Shown here: piece after piece, positions 3,197-62,447 of the stretch
Layout: every line of letters begins with the position of its first letter
Position numbering within the stretch: the stretch's first letter is position 1
Origin: Eledone cirrhosa
Lineage: Eukaryota
Assembly: GCA_964016885.1 (NCBI GenBank)
Contig: OZ024744.1
Span: 28,582,001-28,646,000, forward strand
Length of the DNA stretch: 64,000 bases
Reading direction: 5' to 3'
Notes under the pieces: model-generated
Told to the model about the DNA's origin: nothing
The model's input: the letters and a program-made list of their open reading frames with translations, nothing else
The model's database searches: none
Position numbers and translations under genes: made by a program

Positions 3197-3241
<45 letters not shown>
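3197..3241. repeat. (AAT)15 microsatellite separating two Tx1 copies
   Basis: Read directly; lies between the 5' end of copy 1 and the 3' end of copy 2. Confidence 0.97.
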
Positions 3242-3243
<2 letters not shown>

Positions 3244-6500: not shown

Positions 6501-6923
6501 GTCGCCCACTAACACTAAAGAGCGGGACGTTCCAAGAAAGGTCTCCAGACGCCGGAAGAAATCAGGCCGCCCTGCTCCTGTCGGGGCATAGACGGCCACT
6601 AGCCTGAAAGCTTGCCCGTCTCCGCTGGTCACATCCAGCACCACCAGCTTACCCTCTGGGTCCAGGAAGATGGCCTGTATGGCGAGATCCAAACCTCTCC
6701 GAAAAAGCACAGCAACTCCTCCACCCGATCCAGGACGGCTGGGAGATGCGTACACATCGTAGCCGCCGAAGATCGGTGCGAAGGCCCGTGCTTCGGAGAT
6801 TCTGGTCTCGCTGATGGCCACTACATCTATGTTTAGTGACCTGAGGTCGTTGAGCAGGTGACCCTGCTTCCATGACGACCCCAAGCCACGCGCATTTATG
6901 CTGCCTATTCTGAGTGAGGTCAT
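3504..6923 (-). pseudogene. Tx1 ORF2: APE endonuclease, reverse transcriptase and C-terminal zinc knuckle; one premature stop at 4059-4061
   Basis: The 954-aa ORF continues in frame to 3504. Motifs: SINARGL, GDWN, YLDR, TDH (APE); SPGLDG, FRPITLLN, KAFDRV, QGCPLS, YADD (RT); CPRC...H...C. Confidence 0.95.
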
Positions 6924-6957
6924 GTTTAAATAGAGTGGAAAAGATGGGAAAGACCAC

Positions 6958-16200: not shown

Positions 16201-16625
16201 ATACGATTCGGGGATGTTCTATTCGGAGATGTTCTAATTTCTATGTCAAGGGCCATCGAATCAAATATTTTTTCTATATTTTCTCTGTTTGTGTATGCCA
16301 TAATTCCTTAATTAATTATGCAATCCACACCTGATGATATCCCCAGGATCTTATTGAAATATATATACAGTGTTTTTTGCAAAATAAAACTTTAAAGGAA
16401 CATCACCAGTCTGGACTCCTATTATTTTAATCAATCTAATATTTAACTCTGTTCCTGCACGAGCCACAGGATCCAATACAAACGATGGGTGAGTTGCTTT
16501 TCCTGCTATTAAATAATGGTTAACTAAACGGAATGAGCAGTTCTATCTAGTGGTGAATCACAAAACATATATAAATATATATACAATATATTAACAAATG
16601 GAAACTATATTTATAAAACCATATT

Positions 16626-16691
16626 TATTTTATTATACATATTTCAAGGGCCACCAAGGCAAATTATGGTGCGCTTTCATCAGATAAAATA
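16626..16691 (-). ncRNA. Minimal type I hammerhead ribozyme
   Basis: Mirror copy of 16841-16906. Confidence 0.75.
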
Positions 16692-16840
16692 CAGATTTGT
16701 TCCACAAATAAATATTGACATACCCGAAAAAAATACAAACTTAATGGTTGGAGCTTCCTGGATATCCAGGAAGCTCCAACCGTTAAGGTTGTCTTTTTTC
16801 AGGGTGTATCAATATTTATTTATAAAACTAATCTGTATTG

Positions 16841-16906
16841 TATTTTATCTGATGAAAGCGCACCATAATTTGCCTTGGTGGCCCTTGAAATATGTATAAT
16901 AAAATA
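16841..16906 (+). ncRNA. Minimal type I hammerhead ribozyme
   Basis: TATTTTAT-CTGATGA-[stem II]-GAAA-TATGTA-TA-ATAAAATA, with an 8-bp stem I and intact core boxes. Confidence 0.78.
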
Positions 16907-17509
16907 AATATGGTTTTATAAATATAGTTTCCATTTGTTAATATATTGTATATTTACTCCAATAATTTGTTGAGTGCTTTATATCAGTTATAAAAATATT
17001 TTTAAGCTTGTATCCCAACAAATTAAATATAACCTCTGCATAAATATATATATATATAGAAAGATGGATAGATAGATACAAACATATATATACATACATA
17101 CATACATGCACACACATAATTATATATATATATATTTCTATAATAAAATGGATATACATATACTCTACTAACACACTTAATACTTTTTTGACAGCGGTTG
17201 TCACCCGACTTACAACGGAATCCGTTATATATACATACATAGATATACACACAGACGCGCACACACGAACCCACACATGCATACATATATATATATATAT
17301 ATACATTTATATATACGTACATATACATACATACATACACACGCAGATACGCACACTCACATACACATATATATACAAACACTACTACTAACCAAATAAA
17401 CTCGCATAATATATATTGTAAGTATAGCAAGACTCAGGCTGGAATTGGTAGGCTGGCAGTGTTTAACGTGTTAATGCTAATACTTAATGTTTCATATATC
17501 TGTGAAGAG

Positions 17510-24475: not shown

Positions 24476-27400
24476 GGCGACCTACGTAGTAAATCGTATC
24501 ATCGTGAGCTCCGCAAAGGTTTGTTATTTCCGTTTGTTAAAAATTGTCATTTATGGAAAATTTTATTGTTAACTGTTTATAAGCGCACATACATTGTTTT
24601 CCGAAAAGGACACCCAAAAAGATTGGGGCCTTGTGCCCAAAATTTAAACTTTTATTATTATCAAAAATTTCTTTGAAAAAAAATGGCTAATTCACCTCTG
24701 CACCAAGCAGCTGAAAGCCTTCCTCACAAATTAACACCTCACACCGACACCACCATTGTAAATGTTACTACATTTGCCAACACAAAAACAAATATAAGCA
24801 GTAGCAATATTTTAAATTTGTCTCAGGCAGACATTCATTTCCCGCCATTACCAATGACTGCAGGTGTTAAAGCCTCCACCACCACCACCACCGCGGCACC
24901 CCCCCCCCCCCCACCACCGCGACAACAGAAACAAAAGAAGAAAAAATAAATTAACTCGTGATGTCGAAATGAAATCAAGCAAAATGGACTCTTCCCCACC
25001 AAAGACGACTGACGTCACCACCACCACAACTGAAACTAAAATTAATATTAACGATAGCAACAACAACAACAATGACATTATAACCCCCCCCCCCTCAGTT
25101 TCGCCAGAGTAGCAAAACAATTCGAAGCATTTACCGTAACTCAGGAAGATTTAGAAAATGCCAAACAAATGGTAAAGAAAGATGGGTACAGGGTCAGCCT
25201 CACCCCCCCACCTAATAAAATGGAGCATCGGCGCCTATGCACCGTGTCTTATAGAACAATAAATGTAAAATCGCGCCGAGTGGAACGGGCATCCGAGTCC
25301 CAAATCCAAAAAGCTTTGGGACATGTGTGGGCAAGAAAAACCCACATCAGACGTGGGAAAAAGTAAGGAACCGTGGACGTGTTCTTTGAAACACCAGAGG
25401 AGGCTAGAGAACACTCCATGGCCTCATTAAAAAGAGACGACTTCACACTCGTCCCAAGCTATTGTGGCCAGAGACTCGTAAAGATCAGGGTGACCCACGT
25501 TCCACCGGCCATCGAAATTCCCTGGCTAATAGCGGCCGTCCTCGCCGGCATCGAAGCCAACACGAAAATAATAGCAATAGCAAAAGAAAAGCAGGAAAAC
25601 TGGTCCGGATCTGGGACGGAGCTCCTGATCCAAGCGGACCAAAAAAGCATTGAGGAGATCCCAGAGGTAATAGACCTCACTGACGGCAGCCACCTCACGG
25701 TAATTGTCGAGGGCAGAAGACCTAGGTGTGTCGTTTGTGGTGAAGGAACCCACCTAAGGGCTTTCTGCCCTCAGGCTAAAAGGTTGAGGCCACCTCTCCT
25801 ACCCACCCCAGTGACACAACCATCAACACCACCAGTAGCAGAGATGGCAGCAACAACTGTAGCAGCAACAACAGAAGCAACTATAACAGCAACAACCCCA
25901 GCAACAGTAGCAAAACCAACACCACCACCACCACCACCAGCAAAACCAACACCACCACCACCCAACGTTTCAGAACTAGCACCAGCGCCTACACCATCCA
26001 CCACGCCACAACCAAAACTAACGGCTGTGGAGGATTTTCCACTCCCCGGCCTATCACAACTGGAGACAGATTGTGACGACGAGGAGTGGGAAACGATATC
26101 CGGAAAAAAAAAAAAGAAACCAACAAAGAAAAAAATCTCTTCCTTCCCCCTCCAAAAACAAAATACAGAGGGAAACAAATAAATTAAGAAACAAAAAAGT
26201 TAGGACAGATATGCCACCATCCACACCAGCATCACCAACCCCATCAACCCAAACACCAACACCATCACCATCATTAACCCCAACACCACCATCACCTACA
26301 CCACAAAAGTCACCAAAATGCGAAACAGAAACAAACCCACAACAAACGCAAACAAAACAAAACAACGAAAACGATACACACTACACAGCATTAAATTTGA
26401 ACAACAAGCAATTATTACACTACATCCAACACAACACCAGCATCACAGAAAAAGACTACACAACATCCCCAAAATTCACACCACCTCCACACATACAAAT
26501 CACTCGCATCACACAGAAAACGTACATGACACTAAAACAAAAATTCCCCAAAGACATCGGAGACTTCCGACAAGCACTCTCCAGGAGGATTTATAAGGAC
26601 ATCCTTCCTGAGGAGGCCACAAGCAGTGAAAAGGATGGAAAAACCGTCCTTCCCCTACGAGAAGTAAGGTAAGTGGTCTTTCCCATCTTTTCCACTCCTT
26701 TTCAACATGACCTCACTCAGAATAGGCAGCATAAATGCGCGTGGCTTGGGGTCGTCATGGAAGCAGGGCCACCTGCTCAACGACCTCAGGTGACTAAACA
26801 TAGATGTAGTGGCCATCAGCGAGACCAGAATCTCCGAAGCACAGGCTTTCGCACCGATCTTCGGCGGCTACGGTGTGTACGCATCTCCCAGCCGTCCGGG
26901 ATCGGGGGAGGAGTTGCTGTGCTTTTTCGGAGACGTTTGGATCTTGCCATACGGGCCATCTTCCTGGACCCAGAAGGTAAGTTGGTGGTGCTGTACGTGA
27001 CCAGCGGAGACGGGCAAGCTTTCAGGTTAGTGGCCGTCTATGCCCCGACAGGAGCAGGGCGGCCTGATTTCTTCCGGCGTCTGGAGACCTTTCTTGGAAC
27101 GTCCCGCTCTTTAGTGTTAGTGGGCGACTGGAACGGGATCTTAGATGCACGCTGGGATTGTGTGGGATTAGTGGATAGGGAAGGAGGGCGCAAGAGTCTC
27201 ACCAACCTGCTCAGACGTTTTGAACTGTCTGACAGGTACCGAATGGATTTCCCGAATGTACCAATGTGGACTTGGACAAATCGCATAAGGTCATCCAAAT
27301 CATATCTAGATAGAGTATTTTGTAGGGAAATAGATAGGTCTAGCATAGGCTGTCCACAATTCAAGATAGTCAGCTACACGGACCACAAATTCGTGATCTG

Positions 27401-30367
27401 TGTGCTTGACTTAGATAGGCTTCATAGACAAGGACCCGGCTACTGGAAGCTAAACGCGTCCTTACCAGCGCGCAAGGCCTACAGAGACCGGATTAGCGAA
27501 CTAGTTAAGCGGGCGTTGACGGGGGCCATCGTCAACAACAAGTGGTGGTTTGCTCTGAAAAGAGCAATTAGAATAGAGTCCATTAGGTTTAGTAAGACTT
27601 TAGCAATATAGAAAAATAGAGCAGAGGGAGAATTAGTTAGAAAATTAGATGAGGCGCTTAGCAAAGGCATCGCGACCGACGTACTTGCGGCGAAATTGGC
27701 CCTTGACCAATTCTTCAATGCAAAGCACGAAGGCTGCGTTGTCAGAGCTAGGGTGCGTGCTCTCAAACACGAGGGGACGAAAGCCGTTCAATGGGCCCGA
27801 GTGGCGGAGGCGCGTCGTTGCAACAAAGCCACGATCCGGTCTTTGGTGGACCACGACGGGCGCATGCTACTCGATCCCGGGCAAATGTGTGAAGCTTTTC
27901 AGCGACACTTCGCTCAACTGTTCGGGGGCAGTGGCGGGCCGGATCGAGGGATGAACTTTAGTGTCTACCTCGACGGACTGCCGCGGCTTTCGGCCACTGA
28001 GGCGGAGTGTTGCGAAAAGCCGATAACAACCGCTGAAGTACGGGATGCAATGACTAGTTGCACAAGGGGTAAATCACCTGGTTTGGATGGTCTGCCCTAT
28101 GAACTTTACGTACAAATGCCAAACTTGTTCGGAGGCCTCTTGGCGGACGTCTACTGCAACTGGCAACAGAACGGGAGAATTCCCAGCTCTGTGAGCCGAG
28201 GAGCGGTGGCGCTGCTGAGAAAGGATCCGAACAAGGGGGATAACATAGATAATTTTAGGCCCATAACTCTGCTAAACACAGAGTTCAAGATTTTGGCCAA
28301 GGTGCTAGCAAAGAGGTTGGCGCTTGTCGTTGGTGGTCTGGTGGGAGAGGCACAGACATGCGCCATTCCCGACAGATCCATCCACGACAACCTCCACCTC
28401 ATGCGATACATCGTAGAGAGGGTAGCTAGGGAACCTGGCACGGGTGGGTCTTTGATCAATTTAGATCAGTCGAAAGCCTTCGATGGGTCGACCATCGTTA
28501 CCTAGCGGCAGTCCTGAGGGCGGCTGGCTTTGGGCCCGTCTTCAGAGGCTGGATCGCTGCCATGCACAGCGACATCTGCTCTGTAGTGAGAGTGAACGGT
28601 CACCTTTCGGAACCGTTCAACATCATGCGCTCGGTCCACCAAGGATGTCCCCTCTCGTCCCTATTGTACGTATTGACTCTCGAGCCATTACTGCACAAAC
28701 TGGAGACGTTGAGGGGCGTCCCGCGCGAACTAGGATGCGGAAGATCCGTGTCAGCATATGCCGACGATGTCACCGTAGTGGTGTCGAACGCCAAACACAT
28801 CAAGGCGATCGGCACTACACTAAGAGAATACGAAGCGGTGACAGGAGCAATGATCAACCAGGAAAAGTCAGTGGGCCTGCAGCTCGGCACCTGGAGAGGC
28901 AGGTCCATGCCGTCCAACAGCGTCGTCGGGCGCTGGACGGACGGACCGGTTAAATTACTAGGGGTCTGGTTCGGTCCAGACCTCCAGACGGACAAAAACT
29001 GGGACGAGGTGACGAGCAGGGTGGCTTCCCTCACCCAGAAATGTGCCGAGAGGAAGCTATCCCTGAAAGGTCGAGCGGAGGTGGCGAATGCGTACATCGC
29101 ATCCGTCATCTACTACCGCCTGACCGTCGTACCTTGTCCTCAGCCCCGCCTGACTGCGCTGGAGCGTTTGCTCTTTCGCTTTTTGTGGAAGGGACGCGCT
29201 CCGATGGTCAGGAGGTCCATCTGCTGTCAAGACCCACTACGTGGAGGGCTGGGCATGCCGTGGCTGATGATGCGCAGACACGCGCTCAGGCTACGACATC
29301 TCCACCTCTTCCTCGACGGTGATCAGGTGTGGTCGCCGTTTGCGAGACACGTATTTCCCCAGCTCGTTTCCTTGACGGAGCTGCAGTCCTGGGTCAAGCG
29401 AAGACCGAGAGGGAGCGCTTGGAGACTGGAATGTGTTCAGGCGCTCACAGCCCTCGACCAATCGGGCAATGTGATCGGTGGAAACTCCACCTTGGCGTTC
29501 TATAGGGGATTAGTGGAGGGGAAGAGCGACGACATACTTGGAGAAACTCTAGGCGTCGACGAAAATCAACTAGCGAATCTCTTCGGAAGGACTTTCGGGC
29601 CGGGGCCTATGGACAACTTCCAGAAATCCCTGGCCTGGCAGTGCTACCGAGGAGCTTTGCCAGTTCGGGATAAACTCTACAGGCATGGAGGTGTCGTCAG
29701 CCGGGCATGTCCGAGATGCGCGCAGGGCGACGAAACTGTCCTGCACGCACTCGTCCAGTGTCCGAGCATTGCTGACTTGTGGGTTTATGTCGAACACCTG
29801 CTGTCACGTGTAGGACGGATCCAGCTATCAGCTGAGTCCATCGTGAGGATTGCCCCAACCCCTTCCTTTAGCCGGGAGGGGCAGGCAGTTTTTATCTGTC
29901 TGGTGGCCATGGCGAAAGAGATAGTATGGTGGACACGTTTGAAAGGGCTGAAGACGAGCACTTACCTCTTCGGTGATGCTCTGATTAACTTTTTCAAATT
30001 TCATTTGAAAAGGAAAATCAGGGTAGAGAGGGAAGTGCTCTCTTCCCAGCATTTTGTTGAAAGATGGGTGAGAGAAGCAAGTATGGCCCGAATGAATGGG
30101 CCTTCTCTGAGTATGTGTCTGTAAATTAAAGGTGGAAAACTGGGAGAGGGCACTTGCCCTGGTGGTCAGGGCCACTGTGGTCTTTTAATGGGCTTTCTCC
30201 ACAAATGTCCCTCGGAAGTCTCCCCCCTATTGGGGAATTTTTCTTTGTTATTTTATTTCAACCTCTGTTCTTTTTACACGCAGAAATGCCCATTTGTACC
30301 GTCCTGTATTGTCCTGTACTGTCCTTAATGTCTACTTTATGTAAACCCTTGTTGTTAATAAAGAAAA

Positions 30368-30368
<1 letters not shown>
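24476..30368 (+). mobile_element. Full-length Tx1-clade element, type B, copy 1
   Basis: 5'UTR GGCGACCTACG...; fragmented ORF1 at 24683-26672 (CVVCGEGTHLRAFC); ORF2 at 26707-30124 with frameshifts and stops; 3' AATAAAGAAAAC followed by (ATT)19. Confidence 0.94.
26707..30124 (+). pseudogene. Tx1 ORF2 (APE-RT-zinc knuckle), disrupted
   Basis: ORF pieces 26673-27611, 27696-28505 and 28562-30124 are nearly identical in sequence to 3504-6923. Confidence 0.93.
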
Positions 30369-30425
<57 letters not shown>

Positions 30426-33400
30426 GGCGACCTACGTAGGAAATCGTATCATAGTGAGCTCCGCAAAGGTTTGTTATTTCCGTTTGTTAAAAATTGCCAT
30501 TTATGGAAAATTTTATTGTTAACTGTTTATAAGCACACATACATTGTTTTCCGAAAAGGACACCCAAAAAGATTGGGGCCTTGTGCCCAAAATTTTAACT
30601 TTTATTATTATCCAAAAATTTCTTTGAGAAAAAATGGCTAATTCCCCTCTGCACGAAGCAGCTGAAAGCCTTCCTCACAAAATAACACCTCACACCGACA
30701 CCACCATTGTAAATGTTACTACGTTTGCCAACACAAATAAAATATAAGCAGTAGCAATAATTTAAATTTGTCTCAGGCAGACATTCATTTCCCGCCATTG
30801 CCAATGACTGCAGGTGTTAAATCCTCCACCACCACCACCACCGCGACAACCACCACCCCCTCCACCACCGCGACAACAGAAACAAAAGAAGAAAAAAATT
30901 AATTAACTCATGATGTCGAAATGAAATCAAGCAAAATGGACTCTTCCGCACCAAAGACGACTGACGTCACCACCACCACAACTGAAACTAAAATTAATAT
31001 TAACACAAGTAACGATAGCAACAACAACAACAATGACATTATAACCCCCCCCCCCCGCCTCAATTTCGCCAGAGTAGCAAAACAATTTGAAGCATTCACG
31101 GTAACTCAAGACGATTAAGAAAATGCCAAACAAATGGTAAAGAAAAATGGGTACAGGGTCAGCCTCCCCCCCCACCTAATAAAATGGAGCATCGGCGCCT
31201 ATGCACCGTGTCGTATAGAACAATAAATGTAAAATCGCGCCGAGTGGAACGGGCATCCGAGTCCTAAATCCAAAAAGCTTTGGGACATGTGTGGGCAAGA
31301 AAAATCCACATCAGACGTGGGCAAAAGTATGGAACCGTGGATGTGTTCTTTGAAACACCAGAGGAGGCTAGAGAACACTCCATGGCCCCATTAAAAAGTG
31401 ACGACTTCACACTCGTCCCAAGCTATTGTGGCCAGAGACCCGTAAAGATCAGGGTGACCCACGTTCCACCGGCCATCGAAATTCCCTGGCTAATAGCGGC
31501 TGTCCTCGCCGGCATCGAAGCCAACACGAAAATAATAGCAATAGCAAAAGAAAAGCAGGAAAACTGGTCCGGATCTGGGATGGAGCTCCTAATCCAAGCG
31601 GACCAAAAAAGCATTGAGGAGATCCCAGAGGTAATAGACCTCACTGACGGCAGCCACCTCACGGTAATTGTCGAGGGCAGAAGTCCTAGGTGTGTCGTTT
31701 GTGGTGAAGGAACCCACCTAAGGGCTTTCTGCCCTCAGGCTAAAAAGTTGAGGTCACCTCTCCTACCCACCCAGTGACACAACCATCAACACCACCAGTA
31801 GCAGAGATGGCAGCAACAACTGTAGCAGCAACAACAGAAGCAACTATAACAGCAACAACCCCAGCAACAGTAGCAAAACCAACACCACCCAACGCTACAG
31901 AACTAGCACCAGCGCCTACACCATCCACCACACCACAACCAAAACTAACGGCTGTGGAGGATTTTCCACTCCCCGGCCTATCACAACTGGAGACAGATTG
32001 TGACGACGAGGAGTGGGAAACGATATCCGGAAAAAAAAAGAAACCAAAAAAGAAAAAATTCTCTTCCTTCCCCCTCCAAAAACAAAATACAGAGGGAAAC
32101 AAATAAATTAAGAAACAAAAAAGTTAGGACAGATATGCCACCATCCACACCAGCATCACCAATCCCATCAACCCAAACACCAACACCATCATTAACCCCA
32201 GCACCACCATCACCTACAGCACAAAAGTCACCAAAATGCGAAACAGAAACAAACCCACAACAAACGCAAACAAAACAAAACAACCAAAACGATACACACT
32301 ACACAGCATTAAATTTGAACAACAAGCAATTATTACACTACATCCAACACAACACCAGCATCACAGAAAAAGACTACACAACAACCCCAAAATTCACACC
32401 ACCTCCACACATACAAATCACTCGCATCACACAGAAAACGTACATGACACTAAAACAAAAATTCCCCAAAGACATCGGAAACTTCCGACAAGCACTCTCC
32501 AGGAGGATTTATAAGGACATCCTTCCTGAGGAGGCCACAAGCAGTGAAAAGGATGGAAAAACTGTCCTTCCCCTACGAGAAGTAAGGTAAGTGGTCTTTC
32601 CCATCTTTTCCACTCCTTTTCAACATGACCTCACTCAGAATAGGCAGCATAAATGCGCGTGGCTTGGGGTCGTCATGGAAGCAGGGCCACCTGCTCAACG
32701 ACCTCAGGTCACTAAACATAGATGTAGTGGCCATCAGCGAGACCAGAATCTCCGAAGCACAGGCTTTCGCACCGATCTTCGGCGGCTACGGTGTGTACGC
32801 ATCTCCCAGCCGCCCGGGATCGGGGGAGGAGTTGCTGTGCTTTTTCGGAGACGTTTGGATCTTGCCATACGGGCCATCTTCCTGGACCCAGAAGGTAAGT
32901 TGGTGGTGCTGGACGTGATCAGCGGAGACGGGCAAGCTTTCAGGTTAGTGGCCGTCTATGCCCCGACAGGAGCAGGGCGGCCTGATTTCTTCCGGCGTCT
33001 GGAGACCTTTCTTGGAACGTCCCGCTCTTTAGTGTTAGTGGGCGACTGGAACGGGATCTTAGTTACACGCTGGGATTGTGTGGGATTAGTGGATAGGGAA
33101 GGAGGGCGCAAGAGTCTCACCAACCTGCTCAGACGTTTTGAACTGTCTGACAGGTACCGAATGGATTTCCCGAATGTACCAATGTGGACTTGGACAAATC
33201 GCATAAGGTCATCCAAATCATATCTAGATAGAGTATTTTGTAGGGAAATAGATAGGTCTAGCATAGGCTGTCCACAATTCAAGATAGTCAGCTACACGGA
33301 CCACAAATTCGTGATCTGTGTGCTTGACTTAGATAGGCTTCATAGACAAGGACCCGGCTACTGGAAGCTAAATGCGTCCTTACCAGCGCGCAAGGCCTAC

Positions 33401-36285
33401 AGAGACCGGATTAGCGAACTAGTTAAGCGGGCGTTGACGGGGGCCATCGTCAACAACAAGTGGTGGTTTGCTCTGAAAAGAGCAATTAGAATAGAGTCCA
33501 TTAGGTTTAGTAAGACTTTAGCAATAGAGAAAAATAGAGCAGAGGGAGAATTAGTTAGAAAATTAGATGAGGCGCTTAGCAAAGGCATCGCGACCGACGT
33601 ACTTGCGGCGAAATTGGCCCTTGACCAATTCTTCAATGCAAAGCACGAAGGCTGCGTTGTCAGAGCTAGGGTGCGTGCTCTCAGACACGAGGCGACGAAA
33701 GCCGTTCAATGGGCCCGAGTGGCAGAGGCGCGTCGTGGCAACAAAGCCACGATCCGGTTTTGGTGGACCACGACGGGCGCATGCTACTCGATCCCGGGCA
33801 AATGTGTGAAGCTTTTCAGCGACACTTCGCTCAACTGTTCGGGGGCAGTGGCGGGCCGGATCGAGGGATGGACTTTAGTGTCTACCTCGACGGACTGCCG
33901 CGGCTTTCGGCCACTGAGGCGGAGTGTTGCGAAAAGCCGATAACAACCGCTGAAGTACGGGATGCAATGACTAGTTGCTCAAGGGGTAAATCACCTGGTT
34001 TGGATGGTCTGCCCTATGAACTTTACGTACAAATGCCAAACTTGTTCGGAGGCCTCTTGGCGGACGTCTACTGCAACTGGCAACAGAACGGGAGAATTCC
34101 CAGCTCTGTGAGCCGAGGAGCGGTGGCGCTGCTGAAGAAGGATCCGAACAAGGGGGATAACATAGATAATTTTAGGCCCATAACTCTGCTAAACACAGAG
34201 TTCAAGATTTTGGCCAAGGTGCTAGCAAAGAAGTTGGCGCTTGTCGTTGGTGGTCTGGTGGGAGAGGCACAGACATGCGCCATTCCCGACAGATCCATCC
34301 ACGACAACCTCCACCTCATGCGATACATCGTAGAGAGGGTAGCTAGGGAATCTGGCACGGGTGGGTCTTTGATCAATTTAGATCAGTCGAAAGCCTTCGA
34401 TAGGGTTGACCATCGTTACCTAGCGGCAGTCCTGAGGGCGGCTGGCTTTGGGCCTGTCTTCAGAGGCTGGATCGCTGCCATGCACAGCGACATCTGCTCT
34501 GTAGTGAGAGTGAACGGTCACCTTTCGGAACCGTTCAACATCATGCGCTCGGTCCACCAAGGATGTCCCCTCTCGTCCCTATTGTACGTATTGACTCTCG
34601 AGCCATTACTGCACAAACTGGAGAGGTTGAGGGGGGTCCCGCGCGAACTAGGATGCGGAAGATCCGTGTCAGCATATGCCGACGATGTCACCGTAGTGGT
34701 GTCGAACGCCAAACACATCGAGGCGATCGGCACTACACTAAGAGAATACGAAGCGGTGACAGGAGCAATGATCAACCAGGAAAAGTCAGTGGGCCTGCAG
34801 TTCGGCACCTGGAGAGGCAGGTCCATGCCGTCCATCAGCGTCGTCGGGCGCTGGACGGACGGACCGGTTAAATTGCTAGGGGTCTGGTTCGGTCCAGACC
34901 TCCAGACGGACAAAAACTGGGACGAGGTGACGAGCAGGGTGGCTTCTCTCACCCAGAAATAGGCCGAGAGGAAGCTATCCCTGAAAGGTCGAGCGGAGGT
35001 GGCGAGTGCGTACATCGCATCCGTCATCTACTACCGGCTGACCGTTGTACCTTGTCCTAAGCCCCGCCTGACTGCGCTGGAGCGTTTGCTCTTTCGCTTC
35101 TTGTGGAAAGGACGCGCTCCGATGGTCAGGCGGTCCATCTGCTGTCAACACCCGCTACGTGGAGGGCTGGGCATGCCGTAGCTGATGATGCGCAGACACT
35201 TGCTCAGGCTACGACATCTCCACCTCTTCCTCGACTGTGATCAGGTGTGGTCGCCGTTTGCTAGACACGTTTTTCCCCAGCTCATCTCCTTGACGGAGCT
35301 GCAGTCCTGGGTCAAGCGAAGACCGAGAGGGAGCGCTTGGAGACTGGAATGTCTTCAGGCGCTCACAGCCCTCGACCAATCGGGCAATGTGATCGGTGGA
35401 AACTCCACCTTGGCGTTCTATAGGGGATTAGTGGAGGGGAAGAGCGACGACGTACTTGGAGAAACTCTAGGCGTCGACGAAAATCAACTAGCCAATCTCT
35501 TCGGAAGGACTTTCGGGCCGGGGCCTATGGACAACTTCCAGAAATCCCTGGCCTGGCAGTGCTACCGAGGAGCTCTGCCAGTTCGGGATAAACTCTACAG
35601 GCATGGAGGTGCCGTCAGCCGGGCATGTCCGAGATGCGCGCAGGGCGACGAAACCGTCCTGCACGCACTCGTCCAGTGTCCGAGCATTGCTGACTTGTGG
35701 GTTTATGTCGAACACCTGCTGTCACGTGTAGGACCTACCCAGCTATCAGCTGAGTCCATCGTGAGGATTGCCCCGCCCCCTTCCTTTAGCCTGGAAGGGC
35801 AGGCAGTTTTTATCTGTCTGGTGGCCATGGCGAAAGAGATAGTATGGTGGACACGTTTGAAAGGGCTGAAGACGAGCACTTACCTATTCGGTGATGCCCT
35901 GATTAACTTTTTCAAATTTCATTTGAAAAGGAAAATCAGGGTAGAGAGGGAAGTTCTCTCTTCCCAGCATTTTGTTGAAAGATGGGTGAGAGAAGCAAGT
36001 ATGGCCCGAATGAATGGGCCTTCTCTGAGTATGTGTCTGTAAATTAAAGGTGGAAAACTGGGAGAGGGCACTTGCCCTGGTGGTCAGGGCCACTGTGGTC
36101 TTTTAATGGGCTTTCTCCACAAATGTCCCTCGGAAGTCTCCCCCCTATTGGGGAATTTTTCTTTGTTATTTTATTTCAACCTCTGTTCTTTTTACACCCA
36201 GAAATGCCCATTTGTACCGTCCTGTATTGTCCTGTACTGTCCTTAATGTCTACTTTATGTAAACCCTTGTGGTTAATATAGAAAA

Positions 36286-36399: not shown

Positions 36400-39300
36400 T
36401 CAGATATTCAGGACGTATCGGTTGGTTCTTGCCGTTCCAAGCAAGCATGCCTTTTGAAGCGTTCCAAAAAGCGTGAAGGGGCCGATTTTCTTTAACCATC
36501 CCTGGAAATCTTTGGAGATAGTCCCCAGTGCGCCTATGACAATCGGGATCACTTTGACTTCATGGCAGTTCCAAATCCTTTTCACCTCCCACTTTAGGTC
36601 CTGGTATCGGTTAATTTTCTCCCTCTCCTTCTCTTGCACTCTCGTGTCGAACGGGCAGGCCACATCCACAATCAGGCACGATCTTTTTTCTTTGTCCACA
36701 ACCACCAGGTCAGGTCTATTGTGTTCCAGTTTTTTGTCCGTCTGTATCCTAAAATCCCACAGCACCTTCACCTGACTGTTCTCCATCACCGCCTCTGGCT
36801 TATGCTCATACCATTTCTCAGAATGTGGTAGATTGTTTACTTTGCACAGGTGCCAGTGGATCACCCTGCCCATCACATCGTGTCTCCAGCCCTTATAGTG
36901 GGTCTGGGCTAGGTGTTTACACTCGGACACAATGTGAGCCACAGTCTCCTCTCTCCACAGATCCTGCACAGTGGGCTAGCCTCCTCCTTGTAGATATGGT
37001 GCTTCAACCACTTCGTTTTGAGGGCCTGCACCTGCGCAGCCATTAGCATTCCTTCTGTAGCCTTTTTGAGGTCTCCTCTTCTCAACCAGTTCCATGTCTG
37101 TGGATCTCTAAATTCAGTTTTCTCAAAGAAGGTACTATGAAGGGATTTTCCCTTAAGGCTGCTCTTCCTCCTTGATGTTATTTCCTCCTTGGGTATCCCC
37201 TGGCCTACTGTCCCCTCCTTCAGTACAGCTCTGAGCATTGGCTCCTTACTATAGGTCACGTATTTGTATAGGTTGTTTTTCTCCATCTGAACACAGTCCT
37301 CTATGCTGATAAGACCTCTTCCACCCTCAGATCTCCTTAGGTAGAGTCTATCGACATCACTCCTCTTGTGGAACATGTTGTAGATAGTCAATAGCTTCCT
37401 AGTCTTCCTATCCATTTCTTTTTGTTCAGCAACATTCCATCTCAGAATTCCCGCACTGTACCTAATAATAGACACAGCTCGGGAATTTACTGCGCTTATG
37501 GCATTTCTGCTGTTCAGATGTGACTTCAATACGCTCCTTACTCTCCGAATGTATTCAGTTCTTAACAATTCCTTCATTTTTTTGTTCTTTATGCCATCAG
37601 CCTCCAGAACGCCCAAATACTTGTATCCTTCCTCAGAGTCAATTTCCTTTATCATCTCACCTGTTGGTATCTGGATCCCGTTACTTCTGCTCAACCTACC
37701 CCTCCTCATCACAATGACTCCACATTTACCAATACCAAACTGCATACATATATCACTGCTGAAAATACGGACAGTGTCAACAAGCACATCCAACTCCTTC
37801 TCACTTTTCCCGAAGAGCTTAAGATCGTCCATGAAGAGGAGGTGATTGATGGTAAGCTCTCCCCTTCCCAACTTGTATCCTGCTCTCACTTTTCGCAGCA
37901 TAATGGTCAAGGGTATCAGGGCAAGGACAAACAACAGAGGGGACAGGCTATCTCCCTCGAAGATACCTCTCTTGATCTTCACGCTTCCCAAGGATACTCC
38001 AGTTGATGTCAACTCTGTCTCCCAGGACCCCATACTCCTGCCCAGCAACTGTCTGATGTTATCTGCCACCCTGAAGATCTCCAGGCTTTTGGTGATCCAG
38101 GAATGAGGCACCATGTCAAATGCCTTTCTGTAGTCTATCCATCCCATGGCAAGATCAGTGTGTCTCCTCCTGCAATTCCCCATTACCATCTTATCAATAA
38201 GCAACTGGTCCTTTGTACCACGTGACTTCTTTCGGCATCCTTTCTGTTCGTCCGGCAACAAGTTGTTTGTGTGGAGGTGATGGTAGATTTCCTCAGACAC
38301 AATGCTCGTCAACAGTTTCCACATTACGGGCAGACATGTGATAGGTCTATAGTTGGTAACATCATTACCCTTGATTCGGTCTTTCATTATCAGAACTGTG
38401 GTACCTTTTGTCAACCACTCTGGCACCTCACCCGACACCAAGCAGTCATTGAACATGGCCGTCAGCTTCGGGTGGAGGGATGTTAAATGTTTAATCCAAT
38501 ACCCCTGCACACCATCTGGGCCTGGTGATTTCCAGTTGGTTAGTTTTTTGGCTTGCCCCTTAAGAGTTTCAACTGTGATACTCAAATCAGTCTGTTGCTG
38601 TGCCTGCTCACCGATCTCCCTCTGTACTGTCTCAATCCACCCTGCCTGGGCATTGTGTCTAACATCCTGCTCCCATATTCCTCTCCAGAATGTTTTAGCT
38701 TGTTCCGCCCCAGGGATCAAGTCGTTGCCTCTTTCTTTCCCCTCAAGCTGTCCAAACAGCATCTTCTGGTTGTTGTCGAACATGCGGTTCTGTTTATACT
38801 GACTGACTCTGTTCTCGTATCGCCTGATTTTGGCACTCTTTGCTACAATGCGTTGCTTCAATTCCTCTATGATAATATTTAGCTTTTTACTCCTAGTTTT
38901 GTATTTTATTTCCAGTCTATTTTTAGTGCCTATGTTTTTTAGTGTCCCATTCAGTAGTGACTCAAGCTTTCCTATGTCATTTCTCATTTCCCCGATTTGC
39001 CCACTCAGTCGCTTCTTCCACCACGGCTCTGCTCTTTCTTGTCTGTTGTTTCCTCTCGCTTTTATACCAAGTAGTTTCCTCACCGTATTTGCTGTTGCTT
39101 TGAGGATATTGTTGCACTGGTGAAGACTCATCGCCTCAAGATATGGGATGACTTTGTTTACCTTAGCTGTTGTTTCTTTTAACTTTTTCCTGTCTACAAA
39201 TCTTAGGTTCATAGGTCTCCCACTATCATTGTTCAACTCATCTACCACTAAATTTAGGATGTCAACCGAATCTTGTCCTAGCCCGTCAGCATTCATCTCC

Positions 39301-39788
39301 TCAGTGGCCGTATCTCTGTTCCAGGTATTATTTATCTCAGTATTCAGATCATTGTCTGCTTCGGGTGGTTCCTCCGTTCTCAGGACCTCCTCACCTTCAT
39401 TTCCCGCCGGCTCGCTTGTCTGGCATACTACACCCGCCATCTCCAAGCCATTCTCTCTGCTCAGTTCCTCCAGTTCCAGCTCGCTTATCCACCCATTAGT
39501 TCTTATTACCCGAGCCTGCCCGGCCAATTTTTGTTCATCTAATTTAAATAAACCAATCTCGTTCCAGATGTTATGCATCCGTCTCCTGTAGCCCCTCTCC
39601 TTGGGGTTACTTTTCAGGTAGCATTGCATAACAGTTCTATTCAATTCTTTCGTCCAGTTGGTTCTGGCCCCTTTCCTTCTTCTTCTTCCTCCAACATCAG
39701 CAGTATTTGGTTGACAGTCAGGTTCCTGCTGCTGAGCCAGGGGGCACCTGTTGGGTGAGAGTCTGTCACATGACGTTCTAGTCTCCAT
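36400..39788 (-). pseudogene. R4/Dong single ORF: RT, CCHC knuckle and PD-(D/E)xK restriction-like endonuclease; one frameshift near 36950
   Basis: 959-aa ORF (WKSPGPDG, IDYRKAFD, GDSLSP, HLLFMDD) plus a 189-aa ORF (CRIC..ETVAHIVSEC, RHD, RPDLV, E.EK..RY). Confidence 0.93.
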
Positions 39789-40357
39789 TTCACCGTTATT
39801 CGAACTGTTTATGTTCGATATTTAAACACTCTTATCGAGGATTGGCGAATGTATGTTTACATAGCCATCTGTGGATCCGCCATCCCACTTGGCCCTTGTG
39901 TGGCATTATCACCACGCTGTATACGGACACACATAAACAAACAAACACACGGGCAGAAAGGGCCCCAAAAATGAATAAGCATAAGTTTCATTGTAATGTA
40001 GTATTCGAATGTCTGACTTAGTTTTTGTTTTTTAAGTTTTACTTTTTCCCCCCTCTTCTCTGTCCGTCCGCCTGCTTCTCTCTTCATTCTTATTTTCTTT
40101 ACGTTTTTGGGGTTTCTTTTTTTGTTTTTGTTTTTCTCTGTTTTTCTCGTTTTTTACTGTTGTTGCTGTGCTGCTTTTGTTGTTTGTTTTTTATTTTTTC
40201 TTTTGAGTCTATCTATATATTTTGATGCCTTCCTCTTTGTTAGTAGTAGGAATTCTATAATGTGGAAGTGGTAGCCAGCAGAGACTGGCGGCGTTGGCGA
40301 TACTGAGACAGTGGTGGTGGTGATGTCGATACCGAGGCAGTGGTGGCGGTGATGCGA

Positions 40358-50103: not shown

Positions 50104-50187
50104 AAGTTATATTTAAAATTGTTGGGTTACAACTAGTAAATATTTATAACTGATATAAAAGCACTCGACAAATACTTGGAGTATATT

Positions 50188-50562
50188 TACAATATTAAAT
50201 AAATGGAAAACTATATTTATAAAACCATATCTATTTCATTATATATATTTCGGGGATATCATATTAACAATATGCTATGCCTTCATCAGACAAAATACAA
50301 TATAAACAGTTTTATAGATAAATATATTCGACATACCGTAATAAACATCAACTTCATTTGAAGAGGTTCACTGCTAGAGTGAACCTCTTCAAATGAAGTT
50401 GATGTTTATTACGGTATGTCGAATATATTTATCTATAAAACTGTTTATATTGTATTTTGTCTGATGAAGGCATAGCATATTGTTAATATGATATCCCCGA
50501 AATATATATAATGAAATAGATATGGTTTTATAAATATAGTTTTCCATTTATTTAATATTGTA
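50188..50562. repeat. Near-perfect palindrome (arms ~185 bp, 5-nt spacer), probably inverted Penelope pLTRs
   Basis: Centre GTTCACT-GCTAG-AGTGAAC; hammerheads at 50232-50297 (-) and 50453-50518 (+); flanked by (TA)n. Confidence 0.92.
50453..50518 (+). ncRNA. Minimal type I hammerhead ribozyme (mirror copy at 50232-50297 on -)
   Basis: TATTTTGT-CTGATGA-...-GAAA-TATATA-TA-ATGAAATA; stem I includes two G-U pairs. Confidence 0.72.
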
Positions 50563-50580
50563 TATATATATATATATATA

Positions 50581-51252
50581 TATGAAGACAAACATAGAAT
50601 ATTCGAAAATATTCTGTATGTTTATAATAAACATTTCGAAGACCCAATCGCTATAGAATAGAATACGTCACGTATTACAATTTGAGATTCTCGATAAAAG
50701 CAAGGGAAGTAACCTACGCGTTTCATTCTTATTAGAAATCATCAGGATTACATATCCAGTGCTTTTATCGAGAATGACACAGCTAGAGACTTATAGAATA
50801 CTTAGCTGTGTACAGGAACTGGTTTGAAAGAGCGGTTGCCGGTCCGGCAGAAATTAGAATTTGGATATAATGCTCTGAAATAGCGATATATATGTGAAGA
50901 CAAACATAGAATATTCGAAAATATTCTGTATGTTTATAATAAACATTTCGAAGACCCAATCGCTATAGAATAGAATACGTCACGTATTACAATTTGAGAT
51001 TCTCGATAAAAGCAAGGGAAGTAACCTACGCGTTTCATTCTTATTAGAAATCATCAGGATTACATATCCAGTGCTTTTATCGAGCAACCACTCTTTCAAA
51101 CCAGTTCCTGTACACAGATAAGTATTCTATAAGTCTCTAGCTGTGTCATTCTCGATAAAAGCACTGGATATGTAATCCTGATGATTTCTAATAAGAATGA
51201 AACGCGTAGGTTACTTCCCTTGCTTTTATCGAGAATCTCAAATTGTAATACG
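50581..51252. repeat. Tandem plus inverted copies of a second hammerhead-bearing repeat unit
   Basis: 50581-50839 and 50890-51083 are direct copies; 51084-51252 is inverted. Confidence 0.88.
51172..51214 (+). ncRNA. Minimal hammerhead with palindromic stem III (ACGCGU); further copies at 50709-50751 (-) and 51021-51063 (-)
   Basis: GTAATC-CTGATGA-T-TTCT-AATA-AGAA-T-GAAA-CGCG-TA-GGTTAC. Confidence 0.8.
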
Positions 51253-51322
51253 TTTATTTCATTATATATATTTCAGGGATACCAAATTAAATTATGGTAT
51301 GCCTTCATCAGACAAAATACAA

Positions 51323-53331
51323 GTAGAAAATGATATCGTATCTATCATCCAAGGCATCAAATTCAAAGAAAACTTCAAAGGCCAGGATTACCTAAGGAGT
51401 ATTAAGGATAATATTGAAAACTTGGAGAAAACAGAGAAAATTCTAGTGAAGTCGGACAAAACTAATAATCTTTATGGAATACAAAAGGACATGTATAACG
51501 ACCTTATATTGAAAGAACTAAGGAAAAAGTACAAGGTAGCAAATAAGGACGAACTTGAAAAACTGAATACAGATGCATCTTGTATAATGCATGAATTAAA
51601 CATTGAGAATAAAACACAACCCTTCATGCCTAGGAAACCTAAGATCAATATGAAGGATCACAAAAGAAACTTTGAAAATGATTTACCAGTCAGATTAATT
51701 GCACCATCTAAATCTGACCTGGGAAAACTTAGCAAAAATATTCTAGACAGGGTAATACAACAAATTAAAAACTTACCTAATTTATCTTACTTAAAATTAT
51801 GGAAAGGGACTAGTGAGGTTATCGATTGGTTTAAAGAAATTAAATATAACTATAATAATAAGTTTATTCAGCTGGATATTGCTAACTACTATTCATCTAT
51901 CACTCCTAATCTACTGAATAAGGCACTAAATTACGCATTTAAACATACAGACCTAACTAGCAATGAAATGCACATTATATTATCGGCAAGGAAAACATTG
52001 ATAGAATTTAATAACCAACTCTGGACTAGGGCAGATAGAAATAATAATTTCGAGATAACTATGGGATCATCAGACTCAGCTCAGGTAACGGACCTTGTGG
52101 GCCTATTTATAATTAATTCGCTACATAGAAAAATACCAGGTGTAACCGGAGGCTTATATCGTGATGACATGCTTTTATTTATACAAAATAATAGCTGTGA
52201 ACTAAATAGAAAAAGAAAACAAATTATACAATTTTTTAATTACCTTAATCTAAAAGTAGAAATAGAGAATAACCATACAATAGTCAATTTTCTTGACGTA
52301 ACACTAAATCTCAACACATGTCTTCATTATCCATTTCACAAACTAAATGAGAACTTGAATTATGTTAATTTTAAATCTATCACCCCAGATCTGTTAAAAA
52401 TACTATAGTGAACTCTGTTCAAGAAAGAATTTCAAGAATTTCATCTAATAAAAATATAATTGATGAAAAAGCGCAGTATTACAACGAAGCGTTAGGTAGA
52501 GCTGGATATAGAAATGAAATTAAATACATTGATAATAATAATAATAAGCAAACTAACCAAAATAATAACAATTTTAATTATGGTAACAACTTTAGCAACT
52601 ATAATAGAAAACATTACAATAATTCCAAAAGCCGAAAAAGAAATAGAACTAGAAACATATTATGGTTTGCTCCCCCTTTCTCACTAAATATTAAAACCCC
52701 TATTGCAAAACTATTCTTTAAAGCTCTTGACAAACGCTTCCCTAGAACACATAAATGTTACTCAATTTTTAATAGACACACTATAAAATTAACTTACACG
52801 TCCACCAAAAATTTAGCACAAAATATTAATAGAATTAATAATAGAAATTTAAAACCTAACCAAAATACCAATAATAACCCAAGCAATATTCAATTGAATA
52901 ACTGTAACTGTAGAAATAAATCTAACTGTCCGTTAAATACCAACTGCTTAGCTAAAAATGTAGTGTACAATTGTAATGTTAAAACTAATTTAAATTCATT
53001 TAACTATGTTGGTTCTACCTCTACTTAATTTAAATTTCACTTCAATAATCATAAACATTCTTTCACAGATCCAAACAAAAAATCTTCAACTTCTCTATCT
53101 AGCCTACTATGGGACCTAAAACGAGATAATATTAAATATTCGATGACTTGGAATATTATTTCATAAGCTACTCCTTTTAATTCCTCTTCAGAAAATTGTG
53201 ATCTTTGTATTGAAGAAATATTCTTTATATTAAAGTCCAAAAATTCCCTTAATTTAAGGAACAATTTATTCAGTTGCGGCAGACATAGATTGAACTCAAC
53301 GTTTAAATATAAATATAAATTTAAAATGTAG
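51323..53331 (+). pseudogene. Penelope RT and GIY-YIG endonuclease (frameshift near 52380; TAA stops at 53026 and 53164)
   Basis: KxDK, KDHK, RLI, DIxNYY, GLYRDD, NFLDVTLNL, WFxPPF, CNCRxxxxCPLxxxC, VVY...YVGST, CDLC..E, LN.R. Confidence 0.88.
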
Positions 53332-55055
53332 TATAATTAATTAAGTAATTTAGTTAATATATAAAACCTGTCGATAAATCATTAGATTCCTTCACCTTTT
53401 TCTTTTTAAACTTTCTTCCTAAATATAAATATAGATATAATAAACTACTTTAAAATGTCTATACTTACAATATCTTAAATAAAATATACGTAGGATAAAT
53501 TTCTATACTAAATATAAGGATATCTGTAGAATCCTTGGGATTTTTAAATCTTTTGAATTTTTGAGTTTTAAAAATTTTTGAAATTTTTTTTTGAAATTTT
53601 TTGAAATTTTTGAATTTTTAAATTTTTAAATTTTTAAATTATATTGATATAATATTTATTTAACTTTTATTTTATTTTTATTTTTATTTATTTTTATTAG
53701 TTTTGCTTTGATTCTGATAGCTTCTCATAATTCTCATAAGTCTACCCTTTCAATATCTTGATTGAAATATAAGTAGGATAATTTTCTATACTAAATATAT
53801 GAAACATATTATTTTAACTTAAGATACTCTATAGTGTTTTAAAGATATTTAATGCTTTGACATTTCTAGAATTCGTTTGTCCTTTTGACTATATTGATAT
53901 AGTTGTATTTCCAAAATATAATCCTTTGGTATTTTAAATTTATATTGGTATAATTATATTTCCAAAGTATAATCCTTAGTAATATATTGATATTTGATTA
54001 TCTCTATACAAATGTCTATGTATGTATTAACATGCATATAAAAGTGTTATAGGTTTTTTATGATTGTATATATGTCTGTATGTATACATGAGTGATGCGT
54101 GGACGCACGCAGATATTTATTTATACATATATAGGTGTATATGTATATGTGTGTGTGTATGTATATGTGTGGGTAAGAGTTATGTTGCATAACCACGCAG
54201 TTTGGATAGCAGATATGCATAATTTTAACAAAATGTTAAATGCATGAATGGTAATCATATATATGAAGACATGAATGTTAATCGTATATATTTATGTATA
54301 TATACTGTGAACTTTTTATAACACAAGGAATGTATAGTAGTGATTAAGAGAAATCGTCTGCGTTTTATGTCTATATTGTTGACTTGAGTAAATATAATTT
54401 CTATTTTCAGGACGTGCGTGTATATATATATATATATTTGTGTGTCTTTGCCTGAGATACTGACTTCTCTAGCAATGTGTACATTTTGGAGATTAAATCC
54501 AAATTTTGGAATCTCAAGGTTTAAACTAAACATATAGTCATTATTAAACAATGTTTAATTTCTCATATTATATATTTATGTCCCATTCATGAATATTAAT
54601 ATTTATATTTTTATTATTCATTTCATATGAATTGTTAACTCAACTTAATATGACATGACGTAAAGTTTTCATAATCTCCCTCTCTCTATATATACTATTT
54701 CTCTCTCTTGAGTTTTTCTATCTGTCTGTTGACTTAATATCTCTCTGTTGCTTTCCTCTGTTTTTTTCTTATTTCTTCCTTTTTTCTTCTTTTTTTTTCT
54801 TCTTTCTTCCTTTCTTCCTGTCTTTACTTATCTCTTTCTTTTTTCTCCATGCATCTCTCTCTCCGATATTTCTCCACGTTTTTTTCTTTTTCTTTCTCTC
54901 CGTCTTTTTCTTTCTCTCCGTCTTTTTCTAATTGTCCTTAACACTATGACTTATTAAAGTAATATAAACAAATCACTATCCGGATTGCTTCCAAAAACAA
55001 TGGTTGCATTTTAATAGGGTACGTCAAAGCTTATTTGTAAAACTGTTATATATTG

Positions 55056-55120
55056 TATTTTGTCTGATGAAGGCATACCATAATTTAATTTGGTATCCCT
55101 GAAATATGTATAATGAAATA
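55056..55120 (+). ncRNA. Minimal type I hammerhead in the Penelope 3' pLTR (mirror copy at 51255-51319 on -)
   Basis: TATTTTGT-CTGATGA-AGGCATACCA...TGGTATCCCT-GAAA-TATGTA-TA-ATGAAATA; stem II pairs at 9 of 10 positions. Confidence 0.82.
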
Positions 55121-55453
55121 AATATGGTTTTATAAATATAGTTTCCATTTATTAATATCGTATATATATATATATATATATACTATTGCCCCGTCTGGCT
55201 GGCTCCCGTCTAGGTATACCTGCCCCCACCACTCCACTGCAAAGATAGCACACACCCTCCCGTGTCACAGTGTCCTTCCGTCTCTCTCTCTCCCCCCCCT
55301 CTCTCTCTCTCTCCCCCTCTCTCTCTCTCTCTCTCTGAATAACTAACACTTGAATTGTATCTCTCTCTGTTTAACTGCCTCTCTCTCTCTCTCTTTTCCC
55401 CTCCCTCTGTTTTTCTGTCTCTCTCTGTAGATGTGTGTGTGTAGTTTTCCTAA

Positions 55454-60507: not shown

Positions 60508-61034
60508 CCAGGGAGAACTCGATAAAACTTATACATATGGGTATGTTGTAATATATATAACCGCACAATGAATATTCATTAGCAATCTGTCCAAATAATT
60601 AATACACACACAGAGAAACTCACACACACATATATAAAGCAGTATAACTCTTATATCTTACATGTATGAGCGTGGCAAAGAGGGCGTAAACACGAGGAGG
60701 ATAATAATAAGGATGATGTTGATATATATATATATGAGTTTATCCCGGGTTCAACCACAGTAAGTAGGACACTCAATACAAAGCAGAGTATAAATATCTA
60801 ATATAGAAATGGCTTCTAAAGGACTAGAACTGTTTAATTCGGGAGAAATCATCAGATGATTTCTCTTCAATATATATATATGTATATTAAATATAAGAAA
60901 AATGGAGTGCTGCGTGGTTGCACATGGGTTACATATGAATAAAATTAGTCCTTCATCAGTGATCTTCCAACCTTCATTGGTATTTCATCGCTTTAGAAAT
61001 CATATTATATATATATACAGTATATATATATATT

Positions 61035-61352
61035 ATTCAAAATTTTAACAAATGAAAAATATTCACATAATCAAAATAAATACTTTATTATATATATTTC
61101 AAAGGTACTGTGTTGGTTTTTTCAGTACGTCCTCATCAGACAAAATACATGATTTGATATATGACATACCGCTACGGTCGTGCCAATACGGGAATTGAAT
61201 AGTCAAGACCGTGGCGGTATCTCATATATCAAATCATATATTTTGTCTGATGAGGACGTTCTGAAAAAACAACACAGTACATTTGAAATCTATATAATAA
61301 AGTATATATTTTGATTATGAGAATATTTTTCATTTGTTAACATTTTGAATTA
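61035..61352. repeat. Diverged palindrome of inverted pLTR-like arms with hammerheads at 61081-61147 (-) and 61239-61304 (+)
   Basis: TATTTTGT-CTGATGA-GGACGTACTG..CAGTACCTTT-GAAA-TATATA-TA-ATAAAGTA on the minus arm, with a variant on the plus arm; ~27-nt spacer. Confidence 0.85.
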
Positions 61353-61469
61353 TATTAAAAACTCCAGGAAAACTTTTAACTGTTGTGTGATTCTAATCGA
61401 TTGTAAAACTGTATTCGTTGAGTAATCAACGAACCATTTCGATCTTTGGTTATATATATATATATATGC

Positions 61470-61845: not shown

Positions 61846-62207
61846 AGATAAATCTACCAAAATATACGGTAGTGTCCAATCCGTATGAAGAGATCAATGT
61901 AATCCAAATATCATGAAAAGAGAAAATGTATTCAAAATTTTTGTCGATGAAAAACACAGGAAAACAGAGTCAAGATAAATTAAGAAAAATAATGAATAAA
62001 AACAAAGAAACAGTGCCTTATATTAAAAAATTCATCATTATACGATCGTTTCTAGGAGATATATGTGTGTGTTGGTATGTATATCATATAGATCTATGTA
62101 AAGTTTTACAAACTATCAGAGAGAATATACATAGCTACACATATATATGCTGTCTTCAGAAATAATCATTATTGTTTTAGAGTAGTGACAGACTCACTTA
62201 CTTTAAT

Positions 62208-62299
62208 TTTCAGCAAACAGGGGGAGATAAAGCTGACAAGGCCTTGTTTCGCATTTATTGATGCTTATCAAAGCCAACTACTCCTCCTGTTTGCTGAAA
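62208..62299 (-). ncRNA. Extended type I hammerhead ribozyme with a U3-A8 variant core
   Basis: 5'-TTTCAGCAAACAGGAGGAG-TAGTT-GGCT-TTGATAA-GCAT-CAATAA-ATGC-GAAA-CAAGGCCTTG-TC|AGCT-TTAT-CTCCCCCTGTTTGCTGAAA-3'. Confidence 0.8.
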
Positions 62300-62408
62300 T
62301 CATGGATGTTTGTTTCTTATAGAATTCTAGTAAATAAACAATAGCATAAGGTCTTCGAAATGCTTTTAATTAAGCATACAGTGTATTTCAAAATACACTA
62401 TATATACA

Positions 62409-62447
<39 letters not shown>

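Follow-up and report, generated by a model that had tools for sequence, protein, structure and literature searches.

The hammerhead motif at positions 62208–62299 of the window (the whole stretch of 64,000 nucleotides analysed here) is very probably the ribozyme of a non-LTR retrozyme with a unit of about 320 bp and approximately 2,000 copies, likely cleaved as a dimer and likely reinserted into (TA)n tracts by a Penelope-type reverse transcriptase (RT)/endonuclease. The ribozyme variant, which carries U3 and A8 in its core, is modest when taken alone; the new point is the footprint of the insertions, most of which end at one of two positions inside the unit, one short and one tailed. On the question of which enzyme mobilises retrozymes in animals, the paired short and tailed ends provide a direct footprint; they predict two exact priming sites, for which the in vitro assay already published for a PLE offers a test. 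Coordinates are given in Table 1.

Table 1. Features of the retrozyme insertions, the ribozyme and the neighbouring PLE, in window coordinates.
Feature	Positions	Strand	Details
Family B insertion, 312-bp unit, two inverted arms	50574..51253		C3–G8 hammerheads at 50745 (−), 51057 (−) and 51178 (+)
Frameshifted, 5′-truncated Hydra-like Penelope	51247..55160	plus	pLTR hammerheads at 51311 (−) and 55064 (+); (TA)n end; candidate mobiliser type
Inverted arm of the family A insertion, phases ~220 via ribozyme to ~65	62170..62340	minus	98.8% over 171 bp to family dimer
Type I hammerhead motif, family A	62208..62299	minus	long distal stem I and 4-bp proximal stem I on either side of an internal loop; stem II; stem III a palindrome
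Predicted cleavage site after GUC	62234..62235	minus	C17 = 62235; by position only
Stem III, 12-nt self-complementary ACAAGGCCUUGU	62236..62247	minus	predicted pairing between two tandem copies
Stem II GCAU/AUGC, 4 bp, loop CAAUAA	62251..62264	minus	
Core box UUGAUAA	62265..62271	minus	U3 = 62271, A8 = 62266
Direct arm of the family A insertion, phases ~58–146, ending at the family's short end	62336..62424	plus	95.5% over 89 bp
(TA)n tract entered by the direct arm, likely target site	62412..62445		read from the sequence

Anatomy of the Hammerhead

The locus has the layout of a type I hammerhead, with a YUGANRA box including a 3–8 pair, GAAA (62250–62247, minus strand), UH, three stems and an open stem I. 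The distal stem I is paired at 18/19, and the proximal stem I comprises 4 bp, including one G–U. The core, stems, palindrome and GUC site all lie where the original prediction had placed them. The fold of the 92-mer has a z-score of −6.75, and equal stability was reached in none of 200 shuffles.

In the Rfam check proposed along with the prediction, a 301-bp search aligned the motif weakly with HH9 (RF02275), with a score of 20.5 bits (E = 0.0094), under the gathering threshold of 52 bits. A scan of the entire window (E ≤ 1) revealed no hammerhead, giving instead microsatellite-driven miRNA matches and three other weak ones. The motif shares with HH9 the type I topology, the 4-bp stem II, the GUC site and a CAA-N-AA loop II, which is conserved among the copies and resembles the HH9 loop (consensus CAAAAA); HH9, however, has C3–G8 and a longer proximal stem I, whereas the window motif has U3–A8 and 4 bp there.

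Copies and Unit of Family A

The motif had been taken for a solitary one, which the genome contradicts: among the 40 scored of 2,234 candidates in the 3.0-Gb genome, 27 full-length matches, that of the window included, are 100% identical. An exact 36-mer occurs 189 times genome-wide, and a looser U3–A8 pattern for the family (family A) gave 2,023 genome matches. The C3–G8 version of this pattern had no genome-wide matches; a pattern with N at positions 3 and 8 found 197, and, among the first 100 listed, 98 had U3–A8, one U3–G8 and one U3–U8. Searches of the CUGANGA type do miss the motif, as was expected, since the C3–G8 pattern found nothing and the Rfam score fell under gathering; thousands of extended hammerheads can escape such searches and the Rfam thresholds.

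Seventy loci were studied, comprising the 30 best matches and 40 chosen for subfamily coverage (first 100 listed on contig 1). The unit of family A is 315–324 bp long and is seen in incomplete monomers, in dimers and in longer arrays, which reach at least 12.7 units; the flanks of the motif are the repeat's own sequence, common to other copies. Contigs from two sequencing runs (one study) show subfamily variants.

At the level of sequence, family A has the properties of non-LTR retrozymes, a known class: the tandem units fall within the required 150–450 bp and each carries a type I hammerhead, while the unit sequence and copy maps indicate no coding capacity, no LTR structure, a GC content below 50% and dispersed copies. 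The suggestion that the motif marks an unannotated retrozyme family therefore holds, with a tandem unit of about 320 bp and about 2,000 copies. The suggestion of an autonomous PLE does not, because the unit, of about 320 bp, contains no ORF with RT and GIY-YIG domains, and because the matches listed for 30 PLE loci show no homology other than in TA tracts and in retrozyme copies that lie nearby.

Selection on the Fold

Covariation was assessed in 94 distinct copies of family A. The hammerhead structure is 94% paired over these copies, compared with 34–49% in slid controls, and changes on both sides of a pair fill 187 cells versus 65 in shuffles, with 0 of 500 shuffles as high; relatedness among the copies inflates these tests, and, apart from the covariation score, only two of five whole-structure measures exceeded every shuffle, two count measures falling short of this (54 and 33 of 500). 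The swaps occur in stem II (AU/UA, 62/25; UA/CG, 67/22), where two of four pairs change both sides between subfamilies, in stem III (AU/GC/UA, 41/30/12; GC/AU, 51/25) and in stem I (UA/CG, 54/34; distal UA/CG, 52/32).

U3 and A8 are kept together in 89 of the 94 copies. Variants common to at least four loci affect 0 of 12 core positions versus 49 of 208 others (one-sided p = 0.044) when the count is limited to the reliably aligned part, with the four 5′-most and the last two bins dropped; a first count (0/12 vs. 119/313) was discarded as inflated by non-homologous 5′ flanks. Compensatory changes in stems I–III around a fixed core, as in a type I hammerhead, bear out the claim that the motif has been under selection.

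Sister Family B

Family B has a tandem unit of 310–312 bp and is collinear with family A, ribozyme over ribozyme, with 66% identity over 397 columns. Its hammerhead has a C3–G8 core, a GUA site, a 6-nt palindrome and U–U at the base of stem II. The family B pattern gave 18,141 C3–G8 matches genome-wide and its U3–A8 version none; since, by these patterns, family A is all U3–A8 and family B all C3–G8, the 3–8 pair swaps between homologous families and not inside them. The reading of U3–A8 as a compensatory swap is supported by the collinear sister family, which carries C3–G8. By the same patterns, family A has roughly one ninth as many matches as family B, and it is less homogeneous.

The two-armed arrays of family B are perfectly homogeneous, e.g., at G000:C1:1.240–1.244 Mb, and the family looks, judging by such sequences, very recently active. 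The segment about 60–220 nt after the cut shows 73–83% identity between A and B, above that of the ribozyme region, and spans both putative priming sites; one motif from this segment has 17,134 occurrences. The conserved segment may be a binding site for the PLE protein or a promoter.

Monomer and Dimer Folding

A lone family A ribozyme is predicted to misfold into an inactive shape. The minimum free energy (MFE) structure of the 92-mer (−41.2 kcal/mol) is not the hammerhead, as the palindrome is occupied by the 5′ strand of stem I together with U3-U4-G5. For the hammerhead fold, the value is −32.9 kcal/mol, and the probability of its stem I closing pair is 0.001. The palindrome forms no hairpin alone, and its self-duplex has −19.5 kcal/mol. 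For the natural dimers L027, L020 and L008, pairing of the palindromes is predicted over all 12 bp with stems I swapped; in L020 and L008, the full double hammerhead is the MFE structure, and in L027 it forms in part. Dimers of the window copy's subfamily are predicted to form double hammerheads; among 20 natural family A dimers, the inter-copy stem III reached P ≥ 0.5 in only nine, with most dimers of the GCUU-stem-II subfamily missing this value, in nearest-neighbour predictions made without tertiary contacts. A palindromic, weak stem III is described as making metazoan type I hammerheads act as dimers (PMC4209133), and a report on Xenopus retrozymes gives no cleavage for eight of nine predicted dimers (bioRxiv 10.64898/2026.07.22.740005).

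The alternative helix, in which the 5′ strand of stem I and U3-U4-G5 meet the palindrome (alignment A1 columns 32–38 with 61–68), is 88% paired over the 94 copies. It could hypothetically be a latch that holds the monomer inactive; this is put forward as a hypothesis only, because the covariation of the helix largely follows from the constraints on stem I and the palindrome.

The predicted misfolding of monomers, and the lower number and homogeneity of family A copies relative to family B, would also suit a weak or inactive U3–A8 ribozyme, family A having multiplied either as a passenger or, through unequal crossover, as satellite DNA. Nevertheless, the copies are dispersed over many contigs and have fixed insertion ends, the compensatory changes arose in lineages all carrying U3–A8, and PMC3088659 reports, with reference to earlier work, that U3–A8 has in vitro activity, which makes such an origin most improbable.

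Insertion Ends

The arms of the insertions were mapped onto the unit, with position 1 taken after GUC; loci L024 and L027 were dropped as duplicates, and so was the portion of L067 that belongs to family B. The mapping yielded 72 insertion clusters, of which 45 are inverted pairs whose two 3′ ends both face outward; a further 26 are single or other clusters, and one was cut by the locus edge. Two classes account for most of the 115 outward ends: 56 lie at 130–147 (short), 45 at 165–179 (tailed) and 14 elsewhere, and the GUC cleavage site is never a preferred class. TA tracts adjoin 82 of the 101 canonical ends versus 5 of the 14 others, as expected for (TA)n targets. The tail is about 25–40 nt long, so that a tailed end exceeds a short one by some 30 nt; the short-end class falls at the internal TA tract of the unit, which blurs the short end.

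Both ends are canonical in 33 of the 45 inverted pairs, and the remaining 12 have one non-canonical end. The 33 pairs consist of 32 short + tailed and one short + short, with no tailed + tailed pair (p = 8 × 10⁻⁹ vs. independent choice); in family B, all seven two-armed insertions with both ends present are short + tailed. The insertions thus have the form of PLE-mobilised elements, with an inverted 5′-truncated arm and a tail at one end only; an inverted 5′-truncated copy and a 30–40-bp tail at one end are given as typical of PLEs in PMC8557442, and PMC11167929 places the tail between two internal reverse transcription start sites and describes both the tail and these sites as PLE-specific. 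The short + tailed pairing matches this Penelope 'tail' signature of two internal RT start sites.

The Window Copy

The family A insertion of the window contains one ribozyme and arms of 171 and 89 bp, without the usual tailed outer end; built in this way, it could not release a unit-length monomer. The arms do not overlap, there is a duplication of about 8 nt at their junction, and no target-site duplication is discernible at this copy. It is likely a dead insertion, in which either the second arm was primed ectopically by microhomology or the outer part was later lost; in itself, the copy is ordinary, a truncated repeat and a sub-monomer fragment.

Viewed alone, with its non-overlapping arms and the small duplication, this copy resembles classical twin priming, and LINE-type RT ORFs are present in the window, where L1/Tx1- or RTE-like elements are abundant. 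Mobilisation of the retrozymes by LINEs, with inversions made by twin priming, is nonetheless very unlikely: in most two-armed copies, the arms overlap and each ends at one of two fixed sites, one at each site in 32 of 33, poly(A) tails are absent, and the pLTR pairs of the window PLE share the layout of one short and one longer end in TA.

The proposal that the motif is a domesticated ribozyme has next to no probability left. It would mean that a single ribozyme processes a host transcript at the window locus, and the window copy does have an intact motif; but this copy is truncated, belongs to a family with about 2,000 copies and lies among repeats only, flanked by the repeat's own sequence, and 26 other matches (among 40 scored) are 100% identical to it over 92 bp. 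Moreover, the frames that make up the window's long ORFs come from retroelements or simple repeats, and a lone copy is predicted to be inactive.

Candidate Mobiliser and Neighbouring Elements

Relatives of the window PLE at 92–98% identity include several open frames of about 740 aa, and they have RWR, DKT and CxCx5C motifs, a C-terminal endonuclease, a pLTR hammerhead and TA ends. First-look searches with the window PLE gave 31,982 RT candidates genome-wide. Pfam recognised none of the window PLE frames, so the Hydra assignment rests on motifs matched by eye to the description of the clade; on this basis, the genome contains Hydra-like Penelope elements with near-intact ORFs. Among the matches listed for 30 loci of one PLE family and the window, the retrozymes and the PLE have no sequence in common. 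The PLE's own inverted pLTR pairs at ~16600–17050 and ~50130–50570 (CUGAUGA hammerheads) each combine a short end, lying in TA, with a longer one.

At 51247–51253, an inverted pLTR fragment of the PLE follows directly on the right arm of the family B insertion, and the normal end of each element is missing there; the junction may stem from a switch of template from one RNA to the other, retrozyme and PLE, or else from a later deletion. Another inverted pLTR pair with a CUGAUGA hammerhead, at 61040–61400, belongs to another family. A minimal CUGAUGA motif is carried by one more repeat, which occurs at 13598 (+) and ~60800–60870 (−), and also beside L008 and L009. Near-complete LINE-type copies are located at 459–8514, 25367–36042 and 36400–39821, with one RT frame of 976 aa and one of 970 aa.

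Proposed Mechanism

The proposed cycle would begin with the transcription of tandem copies. Neighbouring ribozymes would pair via the 12-nt palindrome into a double hammerhead predicted to cut after GUC, and the monomer would circularise, as in published retrozymes. The insertion ends suggest that a PLE protein would then nick both strands of a TA tract and that cDNA would be primed at internal sites, about 135–146 and 171–174 nt downstream of the cut and not at the cut itself; copying round the circle or along a multimer would give two inverted 5′-truncated arms, one short and one tailed. Cutting and extension of both strands of AT-rich DNA are described for PLEs in PMC11167929. We give an about even chance to the complete scheme for both families, i.e., circles made by the ribozymes and rolling-circle reverse transcription by a Hydra-type Penelope from two fixed internal starts on both nicked TA strands.

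In two long family B arrays, all units of both arms are identical and differ by 1% from the nearest other insertion (overlapping loci double-count some units); a single circular monomer as the template would fit this, and so would an array that was homogeneous beforehand. The units of family A arrays differ by 0.3–12%, which means that these arrays are older or less uniform, and, as they are not internally identical, family B alone gives a clear signal of a single template. The circular monomers are predicted to fold well, with z-scores of −4.9 (A) and −5.1 (B) in 60 shuffles.

The circle would be superfluous if the retrozymes were non-autonomous Penelope derivatives made from linear multimeric transcripts, the ribozyme trimming ends or simply riding along. 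The cleavage site is never preferred among the insertion ends, some family A arrays are heterogeneous, and ribozyme mutants of an anole PLE still inserted in vitro, hammerhead cleavage not being needed (PMC11167929). Against this stand the fixed core and the stems that covary across subfamilies, private variants present in every unit of both arms of the two family B arrays, which imply a monomer bottleneck, the good predicted folding of the circular monomers, and the unit-length circles known for comparable repeats of coral, mussel and axolotl (PMC7229834); on balance, the linear route is improbable. If the route through circles is true, it would give a sequence-level mechanism for the integration of animal retrozymes and a natural C3–G8 versus U3–A8 pair of homologous extended hammerheads, one of them with a conserved anti-recutting latch helix.

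Comparison with Known Systems

Metazoan non-LTR retrozymes were described by Cervera and de la Pena in 2020 (PMC7229834), with units of 350–390 bp in mussel and 330/350 bp in axolotl. Family A resembles them in having AT-rich tandem units within 150–450 bp, one type I hammerhead in each and no ORF, as well as a stem III that is weak or palindromic, copy numbers in the thousands and coexisting PLEs. It differs in its U3–A8 core, which is fixed throughout the family. The stem III of family A is a 12-nt palindrome, whereas the canonical one has 1–2 bp and a 2–4-nt loop (PMC4209133). Furthermore, family A is inserted into (TA)n as inverted arms, a short end being paired with a tailed one, an arrangement that PMC7229834 does not mention; the word 'inverted' is absent from it.

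PLEs are proposed in PMC7229834 as strong candidate mobilisers of animal retrozymes. Co-occurrence of retrozymes and PLEs in vertebrates, with pLTR homology, is described in bioRxiv 10.64898/2026.07.22.740005, which presents no insertion mechanism, tails or inverted arms; 21 PLE matches are given there for Xenopus, whereas the comparison of family A with one PLE family gave no sequence homology. Among open-access titles and abstract beginnings, the literature search found neither PLE tails on retrozyme insertions nor a retrozyme with U3–A8 fixed.

Natural U3–A8 cores have already been published by Perreault in 2011 (PMC3088659) and for the Cercyon min-HHR of Schistosoma (PMC4209133). The Schistosoma motifs (~1,300 matches) have the same core swap, but they are minimal, heterogeneous and mostly single PLE motifs; family A has an extended type I hammerhead in a homogeneous tandem retrozyme, with a C3–G8 sister in the same genome.

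PLEs of the Hydra clade (PMC8557442, PMC11167929) differ from family A in that the retrozyme has neither RT nor endonuclease and carries a canonical extended hammerhead, not one of the pLTR type. The two are alike in their (TA)n targets, 5′ truncation, partial tandems and inverted copy, and also in the one-ended tail and the internal start of reverse transcription.
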